DNA from: a virus
Direction: 5' to 3' (one strand)
DNA length: 39,106 bases
Virus genome (UHGV): UHGV-1488538
A model generated the notes under the pieces. The model had not been told where the DNA came from. It saw nothing but the letters and a program-made list of their open reading frames with translations, and ran no database searches. Of the stretch, positions 2,839 through 37,063 are shown piece by piece. Each line of letters starts with the position of its first letter. The stretch's first letter is position 1. The position numbers and the translations under genes are program-made.

Positions 2839-3130
2839 AAACCACCCCACAACATCCTATGCCGCTATAGTCGCCACGGCGAAGGCCGTTACCTTTTGTG
2901 ATACATTGGTCCCTGCGAACCGCGATCCTTGCACGTTCAACATCACCAGAAGCAACATCCATACACTGAAGCCAAAGGTGAGCGGCAATGCGGAACTGCC
3001 CTTTTTTCTCTCTTTCAATCGCGCGTTTTTCGATCTCTATCGCCGCAGGAGTAACGGCGATAACCTTTGAAGGACGGCGCATTGAAACCTTGTTCATGTG
3101 ATATTTTTCAAGTCGGCTTAACTTTCTCAC
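2831..3130 (-). CDS. Hypothetical protein (99 aa)
   Basis: ORF in operon context, overlaps methyltransferase start; no recognisable motif. Confidence 0.45.
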   Translation of the reverse strand: MRKLSRLEKYHMNKVSMRRPSKVIAVTPAAIEIEKRAIEREKKGQFRIAAHLWLQCMDVASGDVERARIAVRRDQCITKGNGLRRGDYSGIGCCGVVYD

Positions 3131-3239
3131 TTAATCCAACCCTCTCTGAAAATTAATGCCAGCAGATAAAGCCATGCTGAAACAGAGGCCAGGAATAAGT
3201 ACCATCCTGACCATTTGCTCCAGTGCCTTAGCAGCACAC

Positions 3240-5877: not shown

Positions 5878-6462
5878 TTATTGTTTGTTTTTTTCGTTCT
5901 GGTTGATGACAAATTCAATGTAACTTTCGATCTTTGCTTTCTCGGTTTCGGGTAACAATGCGTAGCGCGAGCGGTCATAGTTGATAGTCGCAGGGTCGTG
6001 CGGGTGAATCAGTAGTTCATATCCGTGACGCCCGAATGCGGATGCAACATTCTCCAGGGTGGAAATGGAAACGCTGACCTCATTGTTTAACAGGCGACTG
6101 ATTGTCACCTGGGCGACGCCGGATGCGCGGTGAAGTTTTCCCTGAGTTGAAAGGTCGCGGCTTTCACTCATCCAGCGTTCCAGGTTGTGAGCTGCCAGCT
6201 GACCAATGTCGCTTGGGCCGACAGGCTGAAAACCTTCCTGAGAAAGCGAGCGATCGATATCAAGCCAGTTACGGGGTTTATTGGCGGCAGCTTCAATTTT
6301 TCGCGCAACCTGGTCGCCGATAACCTTCTTGCCAAGAGCCCAGCGGTTTACCAGATTTGCCTGAGTTCCAAGTTTTTCTGCCATCCGCGTCTGAACACCA
6401 TTGAATTCACGGTCGATCAAGTCGTTGAGATTTTGCCTGCGGACGTCCTGGATACTTTTCAT
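5878..6462 (-). CDS. Immunity repressor, tandem HTH (XRE-like), no peptidase S24 domain
   Basis: 194 aa; two HTH-like segments (TRMAEKLGTQANLVNRWALGKK and ASGVAQVTISRLLNNEVSVSISTLENV); divergent from Cro-like gene with operator cluster between. Confidence 0.75.
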   Translation of the reverse strand: MKSIQDVRRQNLNDLIDREFNGVQTRMAEKLGTQANLVNRWALGKKVIGDQVARKIEAAANKPRNWLDIDRSLSQEGFQPVGPSDIGQLAAHNLERWMSESRDLSTQGKLHRASGVAQVTISRLLNNEVSVSISTLENVASAFGRHGYELLIHPHDPATINYDRSRYALLPETEKAKIESYIEFVINQNEKNKQ

Positions 6463-6517: not shown

Positions 6518-6532
6518 TTACCCAACAGGTAA
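6518..6532. promoter_or_regulatory. Operator TTACC-CAACA-GGTAA (OR-like site 1)
   Basis: Perfect palindrome between divergent repressor and cro-like genes. Confidence 0.7.
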
Positions 6533-6534
6533 AT

Positions 6535-6549
6535 GCACCCCATAGGTAA
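6535..6549. promoter_or_regulatory. Degenerate operator GCACC-CCATA-GGTAA (OR-like site 2)
   Basis: One perfect half-site, 2 mismatches in the other; 3 bp from site 1. Confidence 0.4.
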
Positions 6550-6565
6550 CTATCCTTGATTTTTG

Positions 6566-6580
6566 TTACCTTATGGGTGA
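6566..6580. promoter_or_regulatory. Operator TTACC-TTATG-GGTGA (OR-like site 3, within spacer of putative cro promoter)
   Basis: 1 mismatch; sits between candidate -35 TTGATT (6556-6561) and -10 GAATAT (6579-6584). Confidence 0.55.
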
Positions 6581-6616
6581 ATATTTATTATCTGAAATAA
6601 ATATCAGGCAATAGCT

Positions 6617-15063: not shown

Positions 15064-15140
15064 TGGCGTGGCATGCAGGATTCGAACCTGCGACCAACCG
15101 CTTAGAAGGCGGTTGCTCTGTCCAACTGAGCTAATGCCAC
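15064..15140 (-). tRNA. tRNA-Arg (anticodon UCU)
   Basis: 77-nt cloverleaf folded by hand on the minus strand: 7-bp acceptor stem GTGGCAT/ATGCCAC, D-arm GCTC/GAGC, anticodon stem ACCGC/GCGGT with loop CTTCTAA, T-arm GCAGG-TTCGAAT-CCTGC, encoded CCA. Confidence 0.9.
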
Positions 15141-32891: not shown

Positions 32892-32932
32892 ACATCACCT
32901 CATAATATATAGATGCTTCTTTAAGCGGGATT

Positions 32933-32947
32933 TACCATTAGGGTAAA
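32933..32947. promoter_or_regulatory. Operator TTACC-ATTAG-GGTAA upstream of 211-aa gene
   Basis: Perfect palindrome about 42 bp upstream of start; coordinates +/-1. Confidence 0.65.
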
Positions 32948-33032
32948 TGAACTATCCGAATGTTAAACGCCTTCGTACTCGTCAAATTTTCTCATGTGGG
33001 CTCCTCCTGTATCGGTGCCTAATCGCTATGGA

Positions 33033-33120: not shown

Positions 33121-33831
33121 TCAGAAGAACCCTGCCTTGTCGTTGATGTACTCCGCGTGGGTCTGGATATCACGCAGGCATTTGCTCACACCGACGATGT
33201 AGCAGAACATGGTGGTCAGCTCCGCCGCCGCGCCCGATACATCGTGCCCGTCTTCCTGTAACTGGTTCAGCAGATTCATCAGCAGTGAGTTCTCCGTCAG
33301 GCCGAGAACACCAGACGGCGAATGAATCAGGCTGCGGTAGCCGGGCTTCAGTGGGGCGCTGTAGGTTTTGTTCTCTATCTTCATCGCCTGCATTACTGCT
33401 GACGCCGTGGCGTTGGCTACCTGGTCGGCAACCATCTTTATGCGTTCTTCCTGCGGGAGCGAGTTTTTAATGTAACTTCCGGTGCGGCGGATCTGAGGAA
33501 GAACCTCACCTGTAACCCATTTACGAAAGCGGTAGGGGATAGTGCCTGGTGTCACTGCGTCGCGGCAGCGGAGGATCAGTGTGTAGAGGCCTGACTCGGA
33601 GATAATGTTGATCTCTTTTACTCGGCTGTCAAAAATTGCACGATGTTCATGCCCTATGTTGAACATAGACCTTTCATCATCATCCAGTTTTTCAAGTGCT
33701 TGGGTGACGTTTTGGATACGCAGCGCACTACAAACGTCTTGGGCTACAAACCATGGTTGGCCATCGATAATGATGGAACGGATAGGGTTAACAGATTCAA
33801 ATTTGAAGATGGCAGTTTGAGCATTAGCCAT
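33121..33831 (-). CDS. Antirepressor (Bro-N/KilA-N N-terminal domain plus C-terminal domain)
   Basis: N-terminus FKFESVNPIRSIIIDGQPWFVAQDVCSALRI is a classic Bro-N/Ant signature; start at ATG 33831 with GGAG RBS (track GTG at 33846). Confidence 0.8.
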   Translation of the reverse strand: MANAQTAIFKFESVNPIRSIIIDGQPWFVAQDVCSALRIQNVTQALEKLDDDERSMFNIGHEHRAIFDSRVKEINIISESGLYTLILRCRDAVTPGTIPYRFRKWVTGEVLPQIRRTGSYIKNSLPQEERIKMVADQVANATASAVMQAMKIENKTYSAPLKPGYRSLIHSPSGVLGLTENSLLMNLLNQLQEDGHDVSGAAAELTTMFCYIVGVSKCLRDIQTHAEYINDKAGFF

Positions 33832-33859
33832 GGTGGTTATCTCCACTTAGTGATTTTAA

Positions 33860-33890
33860 TCACCACCGCAACGCCAATTACTGGTGGTGA
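33860..33890 (-). promoter_or_regulatory. Leader hairpin TCACCACC/GGTGGTGA with alternative pairing to ACCACC at ant start codon
   Basis: 8-bp inverted repeat; a third complementary hexamer lies immediately 5' of the ant ATG. Confidence 0.4.
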
Positions 33891-33986
33891 ACTGGACAAG
33901 GTTGGCGTACCGGCCTAAGTGGTACCGGCGTCCTTTCGGACCCCTGCCCAGCCCACCATAATTCGGATATAGCTGTGCTTAACGCA

Positions 33987-34010
33987 TAAAAAAACCACGT
34001 CTGGCGTGGT
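33987..34010 (-). terminator. Intrinsic terminator within ant leader (ACCACG-ccaga-CGTGGT plus U7)
   Basis: Hairpin followed by 7 T on minus strand. Confidence 0.55.
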
Positions 34011-34026
34011 ATGCGCCACTTAGTAA

Positions 34027-34128
34027 CCCGGGACGCCAATCCCGGCACTGGATTTTGCCAGTGCCCGATTACTATGGCACAAGAGGAGTGCGATGTAAAT
34101 TTACTGCAAAGGTAAATATAAGCACTCC
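34027..34128 (-). ncRNA. Candidate structured RNA / cis-regulatory leader upstream of antirepressor
   Basis: Three hairpins (34083-34128 AGGAGTGC...GCACTCCT; 34044-34065 GGCACTGG...CCAGTGCC; 34028-34045 CCGGG...CCCGG) then terminator; no ORF. Confidence 0.4.
34101..34115. promoter_or_regulatory. Operator-like TTACT-GCAAA-GGTAA inside leader hairpin
   Basis: 1 mismatch. Confidence 0.4.
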
Positions 34129-34146
34129 TATTGGTAATTTCAAATC

Positions 34147-34419
34147 TTATCTGGTTTGTTTTCGTAATTGTTCGGCACAATAGTCGAGATGTGTTTGCAG
34201 ATCCTGCATAGACATCTGTGAGCTGGTGACGTAGTTAATCAGTGCAGTCAGTTCGGCAAGTGGGCCATCGACATTAAATCCATCCTTATCGAGATCCCGG
34301 AGTAATTTCATCAAGTGCGATCCCTCCACCAGTGACCTGACGCCTCCCGGCGTGTGAATCCTTTCGGTAAATCCCTCTTCCAGTGGATAGTGATACTGCT
34401 GCATCTTAATCTTCTCCAT
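34147..34419 (-). CDS. Small protein homologous to antirepressor C-terminal domain; LexA-controlled (candidate SOS antirepressor)
   Basis: 90 aa; about 45% identity by eye to Ant residues ~170-241 (IH.P.GV..L.E.S.LM.LL..L..DG..V.G..AELT, D.QTH..Y); LexA box directly upstream. Confidence 0.7.
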   Translation of the reverse strand: MEKIKMQQYHYPLEEGFTERIHTPGGVRSLVEGSHLMKLLRDLDKDGFNVDGPLAELTALINYVTSSQMSMQDLQTHLDYCAEQLRKQTR

Positions 34420-34424
34420 GCAAT

Positions 34425-34444
34425 AACTGTATATTTATACAGTA
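34425..34444. promoter_or_regulatory. LexA (SOS) box AACTGTATATTTATACAGTA
   Basis: CTGT-N8-ACAG with AT-rich spacer, near-consensus; overlaps putative -10 of small ant-like gene. Confidence 0.8.
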
Positions 34445-34481
34445 GCAAATAATTTGTTTGCTATCCAGCACGTTTTGCAAA

Positions 34482-34496
34482 TTACCTGAAAGGTAA
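34482..34496. promoter_or_regulatory. Operator TTACC-TGAAA-GGTAA
   Basis: Perfect palindrome between LexA box and tailspike gene. Confidence 0.65.
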
Positions 34497-34600
34497 TATC
34501 TATTCATATTCACAGTCTTTCTATCCATATATGGTTTTTTGGGTAATAGAATAACCAGATATGCGGCGCAACGGGTGCTGCGACTATCTGGAGATTTAAC

Positions 34601-37063
34601 ATGACGGTCTCAACCGAAGTTGACCACAACGAATACACAGGTAACGGCGTTACGACATCATTTCCGTATACCTTCCGTATTTTCAAAAAATCCGACCTGG
34701 TTGTTCAGGTGTCTGACCTTAACGGTAACGTTACAAAACTAGTGCTGGATGCTGGTTATACGGTAACAGGGGCGGGAACTTATAGTGGCGGTGCAGTGGT
34801 TCTTCCGTCGCCGCTTGCTGCTGGCTGGCGAATCACGATAGAGCGTGTGCTTGATGTGGTGCAGGAGACTGATCTTCGCAATCAGGGAAAATTTTTCCCC
34901 GAAGTTCATGAGGATGCATTTGACTACCTGACGATGCTGATCCAGCGATGTTTTGGGTGGTTCAGACGTGCATTGATGAAACCATCTTTGCTTGCAAAAT
35001 ATTACGATGCAAAGCAAAACAGAATATCTAACCTTGCCGATCCATCACTTGAGCAGGACGCTGTAAATAATCGCTCAATGCGTAATTATGTCGATGCTGC
35101 AATCGCCGGAGTTATTGGTGGTTTTGGTTGGTTTATTCAGTATGGTTCTGGAGCGGTATACAGAACGTTCCAGGATAAGATGCGTGATGGTGTCAGCATT
35201 AAGGATTTTGGAGCTCAAAATGGAATCTTAAATGATAACAAGGATGCTTTTACAAAATCATTACATTCGTTTAGCAGTGTTTTTGTTCCGGAAGGGGTAT
35301 TCAATACATCTTTAGTTTCTCTTTCACGTTGTGGCTTGTACGGAACAGGTGGGGGAACGATAAAACAGTATGACAGAGATGGTAATCATCTGGTTTTTAA
35401 CATGCCCGATGGTGGCATGCTTAGTACGCTAACAATTATGGGAAATAAATCAGATGATAGTGTGCAGGGACACCAGGTGTCATTTTCAGGTGGCCATGAT
35501 GTATCGGTTAAAAATATCAGATTTACAAATACGCGAGGACCAGGATTTAGCTTGATCGCTTATCCGGATAATGGTATTCCGTCAGGTTACATTGTTAGAG
35601 ATATAAGAGGAGAGTATTTAGGGTTCGCAAATAATAAAAAAGCAGGTTGTGTGCTTTTTGATTCATCGCAAAATACGCTAATTGATGGTGTGATAGCCAG
35701 AAATTATCCTCAGTTTGGTGCAGTGGAACTTAAAACAGCAGCAAAATATAACATTGTCAGCAATGTTATTGGTGAAGAGTGTCAGCACGTTGTTTACAAT
35801 GGAACTGAGACGGAAACTGCCCCAACGAATAATATCATTAGCAGTGTAATGGCTAACAACCCAAAATACGCCGCAGTAGTTGTTGGCAAGGGGACTGGTA
35901 ACCTGATTTCGGATGTGCTGGTTGATTACTCTGAATCGGACGCAAAGCAGGCGCACGGCGTCACCGTTCAGGGAAATAATAATATTGCCAGTAATATTCT
36001 AATGACTGGGTGTGATGGGAAAAATGAATCAGGAGATCTGCAGGCATCTACAACCATTCGTTTCTTAGATGCTGCACGCAGTAATTATGCGTCAATATTC
36101 CCCATGTATAGTTCTTCCGGCGTGGTTACCTTCGAGGAAGGGTGTATCAGGAACTTTGTTGAAATTAAACATCCGGGTGACAGAAATAATATTCTGAGTT
36201 CTGCATCAGCGGTGACTGGTATTTCCAGTATAGACGGCACTACAAATAGCAATGTTGTTCACGTCCCTGCGCTTGGTCAGTACGTTGGGACTATGTCAGG
36301 GCGTTTTGAATGGTGGGTTAAATATTTTAACCTTGCTAACCAGACGCTTGTTTCTGCAGATAAATTCAGAATGCTTGCTGAAGGCGATGTATCTCTGGCT
36401 GTGGGAGGCGGTATAAGTTCGCAATTGAAATTATTCAATAGTGATAATACTAAAGGCACTATGTCGCTAATAAATGGAAATATTCGAATATCTACTGGAA
36501 ATTCAGAATATATACAGTTTTCTGATTCAGCCATGACACCATCGACAACGAATACTTATTCTCTTGGGTTGGCTGGTCGTGCATGGTCGGGGGGATTTAC
36601 CCAGTCAGCGTTTACGGTGCTGTCCGATGCGCGTTTCAAGACTGCTCCAGAGGTTATTGATGAGAAAATACTGGACGCATGGGAAAGAGTGGAATGGGTT
36701 TCATACCAGTACCTTGACAGGATCGAAGTGAAAGGTAAAGACGGAGCAAGATGGCACTTTGGTGCAGTTGCGCAGCATGTTATCAGTGTATTTCAGAATG
36801 AAGGCATAGATGTGTCACGACTGGCATTTATCTGTTATGACAAGTGGAATGAGACCCCGGCAGAATACAGGGATGTGACGGAAGAAGAGCATTCTGCAGG
36901 AGTTTACCCACTTATACAGACAAAGGTTCTGGTACGCGAAGCCGTCGAGGCTGGTGAATGTTACGGTATCCGTTATGAAGAGGCTCTGATTCTGGAATCT
37001 GCGATGATGAGACGCAGGGTTAAAAAGCTGGAAGAGCAAGTTTTGCAATTAACAGGGAATTGA
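34601..37063 (+). CDS. Tailspike with beta-helix depolymerase-like centre and C-terminal self-cleaving chaperone (S74-like) domain
   Basis: 820 aa; C-terminal LSDARFKTAPEVIDEKILDAWERVEWVSYQY... and coiled-coil tail match the intramolecular chaperone autoproteolysis domain. Confidence 0.8.
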   Translation: MTVSTEVDHNEYTGNGVTTSFPYTFRIFKKSDLVVQVSDLNGNVTKLVLDAGYTVTGAGTYSGGAVVLPSPLAAGWRITIERVLDVVQETDLRNQGKFFPEVHEDAFDYLTMLIQRCFGWFRRALMKPSLLAKYYDAKQNRISNLADPSLEQDAVNNRSMRNYVDAAIAGVIGGFGWFIQYGSGAVYRTFQDKMRDGVSIKDFGAQNGILNDNKDAFTKSLHSFSSVFVPEGVFNTSLVSLSRCGLYGTGGGTIKQYDRDGNHLVFNMPDGGMLSTLTIMGNKSDDSVQGHQVSFSGGHDVSVKNIRFTNTRGPGFSLIAYPDNGIPSGYIVRDIRGEYLGFANNKKAGCVLFDSSQNTLIDGVIARNYPQFGAVELKTAAKYNIVSNVIGEECQHVVYNGTETETAPTNNIISSVMANNPKYAAVVVGKGTGNLISDVLVDYSESDAKQAHGVTVQGNNNIASNILMTGCDGKNESGDLQASTTIRFLDAARSNYASIFPMYSSSGVVTFEEGCIRNFVEIKHPGDRNNILSSASAVTGISSIDGTTNSNVVHVPALGQYVGTMSGRFEWWVKYFNLANQTLVSADKFRMLAEGDVSLAVGGGISSQLKLFNSDNTKGTMSLINGNIRISTGNSEYIQFSDSAMTPSTTNTYSLGLAGRAWSGGFTQSAFTVLSDARFKTAPEVIDEKILDAWERVEWVSYQYLDRIEVKGKDGARWHFGAVAQHVISVFQNEGIDVSRLAFICYDKWNETPAEYRDVTEEEHSAGVYPLIQTKVLVREAVEAGECYGIRYEEALILESAMMRRRVKKLEEQVLQLTGN

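Follow-up and report, generated by a model that had tools for sequence, protein, structure and literature searches.

A probable P1-type immI RNA cassette between two antirepressor genes of a Uetakevirus genome

Introduction

In phages P1 and P7 the elements of the immI region follow one another in the order a1 b1 - c4 - a2 b2 - icd - ant1/ant2. C4 is a stable RNA that is processed from a precursor, its 5′ end being made by RNase P. Here we analyse a locus with the same order of elements and close spacing in the UHGV virus genome UHGV-1488538. The window, to which all coordinates below refer, is the whole stretch of 39,106 nucleotides (nt) that was analysed. Within it we focus on a spacer of about 300 base pairs (bp) at 33832–34146, which separates a small antirepressor gene with a LexA box from a larger antirepressor gene (ant) on the minus strand. 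The spacer is probably a complete P1-type immI RNA cassette, placed between the LexA-controlled small ant and the larger ant and keeping the latter untranslated.

The c4 and c4-a1b1 sequences are listed as motifs by Weinberg et al. (2010). In the P1 record, a1 lies at 48255–48261, b1 at 48269–48276, c4 at 48343–48419, a2 at 48423–48429, b2 at 48452–48459 and the ATG of icd at 48470, and the annotation of c4 reads 'repression of icd ant translation'. The satellite phage P4 follows the same logic as the window, as its CI RNA with seqA and seqC places target copy, processed RNA and target copy on one transcript. The P4 CI RNA causes premature transcription termination and not occlusion of a ribosome binding site (RBS).

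A further described system is the isrK - orf45 (STnc1160) - anrP locus of Salmonella Gifsy-1 (Hershko-Shalev et al., 2016; PMC4825925). IsrK supplied in trans increased anrP translation 139-fold and transcription 8-fold (PMC4825925). It pairs with the region downstream of its own terminator, as supported by compensatory mutations, and a stable processed RNA, STnc1160, derives from the region downstream of this terminator (PMC4825925). The authors cite P4 seqA as a structural homologue of IsrK, and their account does not call the downstream element C4 RNA (PMC4825925). IsrK and c4 are handled as separate topics in the literature searched, in which we also found no link between phiV10, epsilon15 or Uetakevirus phages and C4 or IsrK RNA. 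The paper on the antirepressor of phage ZX5 mentions neither antisense RNA nor small RNA nor LexA (PMC9782041).

Results

The spacer encodes a C4 antisense RNA and an IsrK-like element

The full window was scanned with Rfam at the gathering threshold, and a second, more permissive scan was added. The isrK family (RF01394) was matched at 34064..33988 on the minus strand with 67.7 bits against a gathering score of 50 (model positions 1–77 of 77), and the C4 antisense RNA family (RF01695) at 33963..33880 on the same strand with 66.0 bits against 45 (model positions 1–87 of 87, E = 8.3e-11). A covariance-model search for C4 had been proposed in an earlier note on this DNA, made from the sequence alone. 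In the permissive scan, 34077..34025 additionally matched c4-a1b1 (RF03163, 'a1, b1 targets of C4 antisense RNA'; 44.1 bits, E = 7.9e-10), a match that overlaps isrK. On P1, Rfam gave 68.8 bits for C4, 51.0 for c4-a1b1 and 35.1 for isrK, which shows that the isrK and c4-a1b1 models describe the same element. The RNA features of the spacer are as follows.

33988–34064, minus strand: IsrK-like element, equivalent to c4-a1b1, made up of two hairpins, a linker in which b1 lies and an intrinsic terminator (Rfam)
33987–34010, minus strand: intrinsic terminator of the IsrK-like element, stem ACCACG/CGUGGU followed by a U-run; last helix of the isrK model
33880–33963, minus strand: C4 antisense RNA gene (full-length Rfam match and fold)

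The minimum-energy fold of 33963..33880 is the Rfam consensus of a closing stem and two hairpins (−43.6 kcal/mol, z = −5.0, 0 of 200 shuffles as good), and UCACCACC (33890..33883) forms the 3′ arm of the closing stem in this predicted fold. By alignment to the annotated 77-nt C4 of P1, the mature RNA is predicted to comprise the 75 nt from 33957 to 33883. The larger region 33820–34070 also folds better than shuffled sequences (z = −4.6). The earlier note had described three hairpins and a terminator at 33987–34010. The structure was confirmed, and these elements turned out to belong to two Rfam families. The terminator stood as noted, with a hairpin at 34010..33994 and a T-run tail that were found independently of the isrK model match.

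Similar isrK-C4 sequences occur in 253 phage records, with about 70% identity over about 200 nt. The majority of these records are Stx1-/Stx2-converting phages such as VT2-Sakai, in which the region is usually unannotated.

C4 is flanked by two copies of its complementary targets

Two short sequences are each present once upstream and once downstream of C4, and both have a complement within C4.

34033–34040, minus strand: a1, AUUGGCGU, in the hairpin 2 loop of IsrK, with the core UUGGCGU as complement of a′ in C4
34016–34024, minus strand: b1, ACUAAGUGG, of which 8 nt are complementary to the C4 b′ loop
33915–33922, minus strand: b′, CCACUUAG, loop of C4 hairpin 2, complementary to b1 and b2
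33902–33908, minus strand: a′, ACGCCAA, single-stranded junction 3′ of C4 hairpin 2, complementary to a1 and a2
33871–33878, minus strand: a2, AUUGGCGU; its core UUGGCGU begins 5 nt past the predicted 3′ end of C4
33843–33851, minus strand: b2, ACUAAGUGG; it includes the first two G of GGAG (33844..33841), the Shine-Dalgarno sequence of ant, whose ATG follows at 33831..33829
33832–33867, minus strand: leader hairpin of GGUGGU (33867..33862) with ACCACC (33837..33832), enclosing b2 and the Shine-Dalgarno sequence

On the plus strand the b copies read CCACTTAGT, a 9-mer that is found only at 33843–33851 and 34016–34024, against a chance expectation of 0.18 per window; 0 of 100 shuffles gave two matches. 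This repeat and its 8-nt complement CCACUUAG at 33922..33915, here termed b1, b2 and b′, had both been seen before and lie where they had been placed. A second repeated pair, AUUGGCGU at a1 and a2 with ACGCCAA (a′) as its complement, had been missed. The complementarity between C4 and the ant leader amounts to 7 bp for a′ and a2 (ACGCCAA with UUGGCGU) and to 8 bp for b′ and b2 (CCACUUAG with CUAAGUGG), with b2 overlapping GGAG. From reading the sequence, IsrK and C4 could form 7 + 4 + 8 bp around a and b.

The layout of the P1 record, a1-b1-c4-a2-b2-start codon, was matched nearly to the base, as had been suggested from the order of target copy, complement and target copy alone. The distances between the elements compare as follows.

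Gap from a1 to b1: 7 nt in P1, 9 nt in the window
Gap from b1 to c4: 66 nt in P1, about 58 nt in the window
Gap from c4 to a2: 3 nt in P1, 5 nt in the window
Gap from a2 to b2: 22 nt in P1, 20 nt in the window
Gap from b2 to the ATG: 10 nt in P1, 11 nt in the window

The C4 fold is likewise the same, and a′ (CUGUCAA) and b′ (CACUAAC) of P1 occupy the structural positions of ACGCCAA and CCACUUAG in the window. Further shared traits are the location of b2 at the Shine-Dalgarno sequence of the gene that comes first after C4, the place before a1b1 of the −10 element, a candidate in the window, an antirepressor downstream, and specificity variants among close relatives, as in P1 and P7. The a and b sequences themselves differ, being UUGACAG and GUUAGUG in P1 and UUGGCGU and CUAAGUGG in the window. 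P1 has an icd-like open reading frame (ORF) between b2 and ant, by way of which ant expression is regulated. In contrast, the window has none, the ant ATG lies 11 nt past b2, and C4 would thus target the ant RBS directly. The icd ORF is specific to P1 and is not a trait of the Rfam C4 family. Unlike P1, the window belongs to a Uetakevirus podophage, its antirepressor combines Bro-N with an SPC32H-Ant-like domain, and a LexA-controlled antirepressor gene lies directly upstream on the same strand. The promoter of P1 carries a C1 operator, whereas an operator in the window is only a candidate.

Loop and target sequences covary across loci

Positions 33500–34600 are 97.5% identical to Escherichia phage HEMP4 by sequence comparison, and about 90–93% identical, over 78% of the length, to phiV10, ZX5 and O157 typing phages. 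These identities indicate that the window comes from a phiV10/epsilon15-like temperate podophage of the genus Uetakevirus. For a family-wide comparison, C4 loci were collected with a pattern for hairpin 2 and its junction, which matched in at least 120 viral contigs and yielded 92 distinct loop sequences. One locus was used per distinct loop, giving 84 loci with full flanks. Here and below, counts of loci and loops refer to the matches listed.

At the b1 position (−150 to −60), 55% of the 84 loci contained a complement of at least 7 nt to their own loop, compared to 1.7% when the loops were swapped (binomial p about 1e-58). The corresponding values for the b2 position (+35 to +75) were 70% and 1.5% (binomial p about 1e-87). 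Between the end of the b2 match and the next ATG lay a median of 8 nt, which places the match where a Shine-Dalgarno sequence is expected. As GCCAACC was fixed in the search pattern, a′ was unable to vary in this set of loci. Of 100 C4 loci, 85 had TTGGC where a1 lies and 74 had it where a2 lies, versus 8 of 100 control windows.

The same coupling is seen among close relatives, including a related locus, L015, that carries a third b specificity.

Window: b1 CUAAGUGG, b′ CCACUUAG, b2 CUAAGUGG
phiV10 and ZX5: b1 CUAAAAGG, b′ CCUUUUAG, b2 CUAAAAGG
L015: b1 CUAGUAGG, b′ CCUACUAG, b2 CUAGUAG

On backbones that are otherwise near-identical, b1, b′ and b2 were switched jointly, and L015 shows compensatory changes in C4 hairpin 1. 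These changes in the b elements and in the helix are the pattern expected under selection on the pairings. Covariation in homologues, to which the earlier note had looked, is thus present in phiV10, ZX5 and L015 as well as across the 84 distinct loops. The three variants parallel the c4-based heteroimmunity described for P1 and P7 (PMC12197685).

When 33620–33963 was compared between the window and ZX5, the large Ant proteins proved identical from about residue 75 on and different in their N-terminal 70 residues. The C4 b specificity and the leader, which also differ, lie in the segment with the divergent N-terminus. This co-location suggests that C4, a2b2 and the Ant N-terminus are exchanged as one mosaic unit.

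A further helix, GCGCAU (34016..34011) with AUGCGU (33987..33982) on the minus strand, brackets the IsrK terminator and lies outside the Rfam isrK model. Only read-through transcripts can form it, and the final base of b1 is part of its 5′ arm. A counterpart exists at this place in P1 (CGGACA/UGUCCG), and variants occur in many loci. A first test, by folding with a shuffled 3′ segment, did not discriminate (59 versus 46 of 62 loci), and own and swapped pairs were compared instead. An exact complement of at least 6 nt was found in 27% of own-locus pairs and in 7.7% of swapped pairs, a modest signal.

A translational block on ant and its alternatives

The mechanism that we propose is based on homology and covariation. 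Transcripts would start at a candidate cassette promoter (34099..34071) and possibly also at the LexA-controlled promoter upstream. The IsrK-like element (34064..33988) with a1 and b1 would be made first and would end at the intrinsic terminator. Read-through would lead into C4 (about 33957..33883), from which, to judge from P1, a stable RNA of about 75 nt is probably excised. The exposed b′ loop and a′ junction of C4 would then pair with b2 and a2 of the ant leader. Because b2 overlaps the Shine-Dalgarno sequence, bound C4 would block ribosome entry and the Bro-N antirepressor would not be made. Such a block could act in cis or hit a superinfecting genome that shares the specificity. Both a and b are also present in the short terminated IsrK-like RNA, which would, by comparison with Gifsy-1, most likely serve as a decoy for C4 and, in excess, release ant translation. 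Our data show membership in the RNA families, the fold, the complementarities with their covariation and the protein homologies; processing, translational block, decoy role and the SOS link discussed below are inferred.

Gifsy-1 resembles the window in having an IsrK-type RNA with two hairpins and a terminator, a structured region and an antirepressor gene, and in both cases read-through of the terminator yields a long transcript. It also provides the experimental precedent for a short RNA that activates antirepressor translation in trans. The two loci differ upstream, since the Gifsy-1 map shows no protein-coding gene with a LexA box before isrK on the same transcript (PMC4825925).

Several observations weigh against this interpretation. 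The c4-a1b1 score of the window falls just under the gathering score of that family (46.7), and the P1 record labels a1 and b1 merely as 'putative' targets. When C4 was folded together with IsrK or the leader in RNAcofold, essentially the monomer folds resulted, without a or b contacts. As short contacts between loop and target are poorly modelled, we regard this outcome as uninformative rather than negative. An RNAduplex cross-matrix of b′ and a′ against the targets of the window, phiV10, L015 and P1 failed to separate cognate from non-cognate pairs, and was discarded because the flanking stem bases that it included pair promiscuously. Finally, the mechanism in Gifsy-1 runs via orf45 translation and translational coupling, which is inapplicable here. 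This coupling cannot operate in the window because the counterpart ORF, of 14 codons, is closed by a stop codon in b′, some 80 nt short of ant. For this locus it is therefore simpler to assume that the ant RBS is occluded directly.

The alternative that survives best, though we hold it to be unlikely, is that C4 acts mainly on transcription, with pairing at a1/b1 or a2/b2 making transcription stop more often at the IsrK terminator or, by the action of Rho, in the untranslated leader. Precedents are the CI RNA of P4 and the downstream consequence of C4 on icd-ant in P1. An intrinsic terminator is conserved between a1b1 and C4, where a T-run is found in 76 of 100 C4 loci; b1 ends at the foot of this terminator, and the partly covarying helix GCGCAU/AUGCGU (CGGACA/UGUCCG in P1) brackets it. 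The Gifsy-1 authors, too, raise a possible control of termination by STnc1160, and the 8-fold increase in anrP transcription with IsrK in trans points the same way (PMC4825925). However, the translational effect in that system, at 139-fold, is far above the transcriptional one, and b2 is located on the Shine-Dalgarno sequence throughout the family, as a translational block predicts. We found no alternative antiterminator pairing that the window, phiV10 and P1 all preserve. For this reason the terminator/antiterminator attenuator that the earlier note had offered as a second reading was dropped; the conserved terminator closes the IsrK-like a1b1 element at its 3′ end. Rho-mediated polarity, in turn, would be a consequence of the translational block and not its competitor.

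A second alternative, which we consider very unlikely, is control in cis only. Here the leader hairpin that buries the Shine-Dalgarno sequence would set a low constitutive level of ant translation, and the 8- and 9-mers would be relics of a decayed C4 cassette. The ant leader alone indeed folds into a hairpin (−22.1 kcal/mol, z = −3.6). The alternative pairings noticed before, with GGUGGUGA (33867..33860, minus strand) facing either UCACCACC or ACCACC, are all present in sequence, and the GGUGGU/ACCACC hairpin is kept in phiV10 and ZX5 as AGUGGU/ACCACU, a compensatory change from G-C to A-U relative to the window. Against this alternative, C4 and isrK were matched at full length, well above the gathering scores and without any sign of decay, and the cassette keeps its candidate promoter. 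Moreover, the joint change of b1, b′ and b2 in near-identical phages needs selection on pairing.

The spacer had also been described as lacking an ORF. This holds for conserved ORFs, but mechanical ORFs of 100 amino acids with a TTG start (33878–34180) and of 34 amino acids with a GTG start are present. Sequence and end point of the long TTG ORF diverge between the window and phiV10 after isrK. A conserved AUG at the 5′ end of C4 opens a 14-codon ORF, MVGWAGVRKDAGTT (33958..33914, minus strand), whose UAG stop codon falls within the b′ loop, with about 80 nt left to ant. The counterparts of this ORF have 35 codons in phiV10 and 45 in Gifsy-1 ('orf45'). The change in b specificity itself generates the stop codon of the 14-codon ORF. 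As a review covering Gifsy-1 points out, conservation lies in the nucleotide sequence, whereas the amino-acid sequence varies (PMC12197685). In the ZX5 record a coding sequence for an 'ash family protein' is placed over the C4 region (positions 1550–1663 of locus L124), and all that the phiV10 record shows is a terminator plus a misc_feature, 'similar to hypothetical protein SF0880' (positions 3093–3160 of locus L001); neither record annotates an RNA gene at the C4 region. That the long TTG ORF or the C4-internal ORF encodes a functional small protein, the RNA signals being incidental, is the least credible alternative: mechanical ORFs and the ZX5 coding sequence exist and orf45 translation contributes to anrP expression in Gifsy-1 (PMC4825925), but frames, lengths and stop codons differ between the window and phiV10, and the substitutions between relatives are compensatory in RNA helices.

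We also considered control of the P22 type. In the immI region of P22, Mnt, Arc and the cis-encoded antisense RNA sar control ant, and the region resembles the window in that an antisense RNA controls the RBS of an antirepressor in a podophage. The P22 sar RNA is transcribed from the opposite strand across the start of ant, whereas the regulator in the window lies upstream on the strand of ant itself. Control of the sar type was rejected, as the strand is wrong and the promoter scan detected no plus-strand promoter-like site within 33700–34700.

Two antirepressors and a repressor of the SPC32H type

Next to the tailspike gene (34601–37063, plus strand) lies a minus-strand block of the small gene, the 300-bp spacer and the Bro-N antirepressor gene. 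The protein-coding genes and the LexA box that bear on the cassette are as follows.

33121–33831, minus strand: large antirepressor gene ant, 236 amino acids from ATG 33831, with Bro-N and a C-terminal SPC32H-Ant-like domain
34147–34419, minus strand: small antirepressor gene, likely start ATG 34404 (MQQYHY...) with GGAGAA ahead
34427–34442, minus strand: LexA box CTGTATAAATATACAG in front of the small ant, the presumed SOS input of the locus and one of only 3 matches to CTGT-N8-ACAG in the window
5878–6462, minus strand: phage repressor gene, encoding a 194-amino-acid helix-turn-helix protein (6462..5881) that matches chain A of PDB 5D50, 'Repressor' of Salmonella phage SPC32H (E = 4e-42)

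Kim and Ryu reportedly found in 2013 that LexA controls the ant gene of SPC32H, and the antirepression system of SPC32H Rep and Ant is said to go back to Kim and Ryu in 2013 and Kim et al. in 2016. The repressor, small Ant and LexA box of SPC32H (PDB 5D50) are homologous to those of the window. In contrast to the window, SPC32H has the small ant only, followed by its own terminator, and the isrK-C4-Bro-N-ant cassette is absent.

The product of the small gene matches chain E of 5D50, the 'Anti-repressor protein' of SPC32H, with E = 1.7e-47, and the SPC32H homologue is annotated as ant. Pfam returned only a sub-threshold DUF724 for this protein; its identity came from the PHROGs and PDB sequence searches. 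The same LexA box was found at the same distance in 7 phiV10-like loci and in SPC32H. In the large Ant, Pfam identified Bro-N (9.6e-20) and PHROG 'anti-repressor Ant'. Its residues 151–228 are 42% identical to the small Ant (E = 7e-17), and residues 155–231 match 5D50 chain E at 1.2e-13. The locus thus encodes two antirepressors that have one domain in common, which presumably binds Rep, and that stand under different controls.

The large Ant is 81% identical to ORF4 of ZX5, overexpression of which lowered prophage counts from 1e9 to 1e6 plaque-forming units per mL (about 1000-fold) and promoted the lytic cycle (PMC9782041). An antirepressor function of the C4-controlled gene is thus plausible. 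The repressor of the window contains HTH_3, and the domain search did not find a peptidase S24 domain. A repressor of the SPC32H Rep type without this domain fits induction by antirepression, and it is presumed to be the target of both antirepressors. Disruption of the Rep tetramer by Ant has been summarised in PMC9638917.

The terminator scan found no terminator between the stop codon of the small ant and isrK. SOS-driven transcripts of the small ant may therefore end at the IsrK terminator and supply the decoy. DNA damage would then give the small Ant protein plus a burst of a1b1 decoy RNA, and titrated C4 would release the Bro-N fusion, which carries a paralogous copy of the presumed Rep-binding domain. 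Induction would then be a feed-forward switch of two stages. The joint scheme, in which the SOS response leads via small Ant and decoy to the second antirepressor and the b specificities are heteroimmunity groups, is offered tentatively, as a possibility that we judge less probable than its opposite. If it were true, the three b specificities on near-identical backbones would define RNA-based heteroimmunity groups among Uetakeviruses of E. coli, and the a1/b1 copies, 'putative' in P1, would gain a defined physiological role.

The identification of the cassette also removes a supposed novelty, as a standard scan with Rfam is enough to recognise the structured leader as a textbook case of a C4/IsrK cassette. 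It is of use for annotation, since the cassette is unannotated or misannotated in the phiV10-like phage group. Taken together, the window, P1 and Gifsy-1 identify IsrK as the a1b1 element of a C4 system, which joins two literatures. With a structurally characterised Rep/Ant pair, LexA input and a C4 cassette of three natural specificities, these phages offer a convenient system for the role of the upstream target copy.

Promoter, mobility and palindromes

A plausible cassette promoter was found in the promoter scan.

34071–34099, minus strand: candidate promoter PisrK, TTTACA-17 nt-CATAGT with TG upstream of the −10 element, 9 of 12 matches plus the TG

It ends 7 nt ahead of the start of the isrK model, and CATAGT (34076..34071) aligns in the c4-a1b1 model with TATAGT, which the P1 record annotates as the −10 element of P1c4 (formerly P51b), a sigma-70 promoter.

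Locus L088 has an identical promoter-isrK-C4-ant cassette in another upstream context, without the small ant and the LexA box. The homologous stretch reaches about 60 nt beyond the upstream end of isrK and takes in the promoter. L015, conversely, has kept the small ant and the LexA box and has a different b specificity and a different downstream gene. The two loci, both on viral contigs, indicate a modular cassette, and from the limits of homology in L088 it appears to be a mobile module inserted downstream of ant in E. coli phages.

Between the stop codon of the small ant and the isrK promoter lies one further feature.

34080–34133: imperfect palindrome with arms 34080–34091 and 34122–34133

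The counterpart in phiV10 is a perfect 18-bp inverted repeat containing ATTTACC-N5-GGTAAAT. In phiV10 the palindrome folds with −37.1 kcal/mol (z = −6.2), compared to −21.6 kcal/mol in the window. It is possibly an operator or an RNA hairpin, and it overlaps the −35 region of the candidate cassette promoter. An exact ATTTACC-N5-GGTAAAT is also present at 32930–32948, upstream of the 211-amino-acid ORF after ant, with 0 expected by chance, and the intergenic region between repressor and cro (6520–6582) is filled with repeats of the AGGTAA(A/C)T type. These repeats are putative repressor operators and would then subject the cassette to the repressor, in the manner of Op51 in P1. The palindrome GGTAAATTTACA was tried as a recurring operator and rejected, as further copies occurred in the search only at chance level.

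The remaining match in the gathering-threshold Rfam scan was a tRNA gene at 15067–15140 on the minus strand (73.3 bits), with the anticodon loop CUUCUAA and the putative anticodon UCU (Arg).

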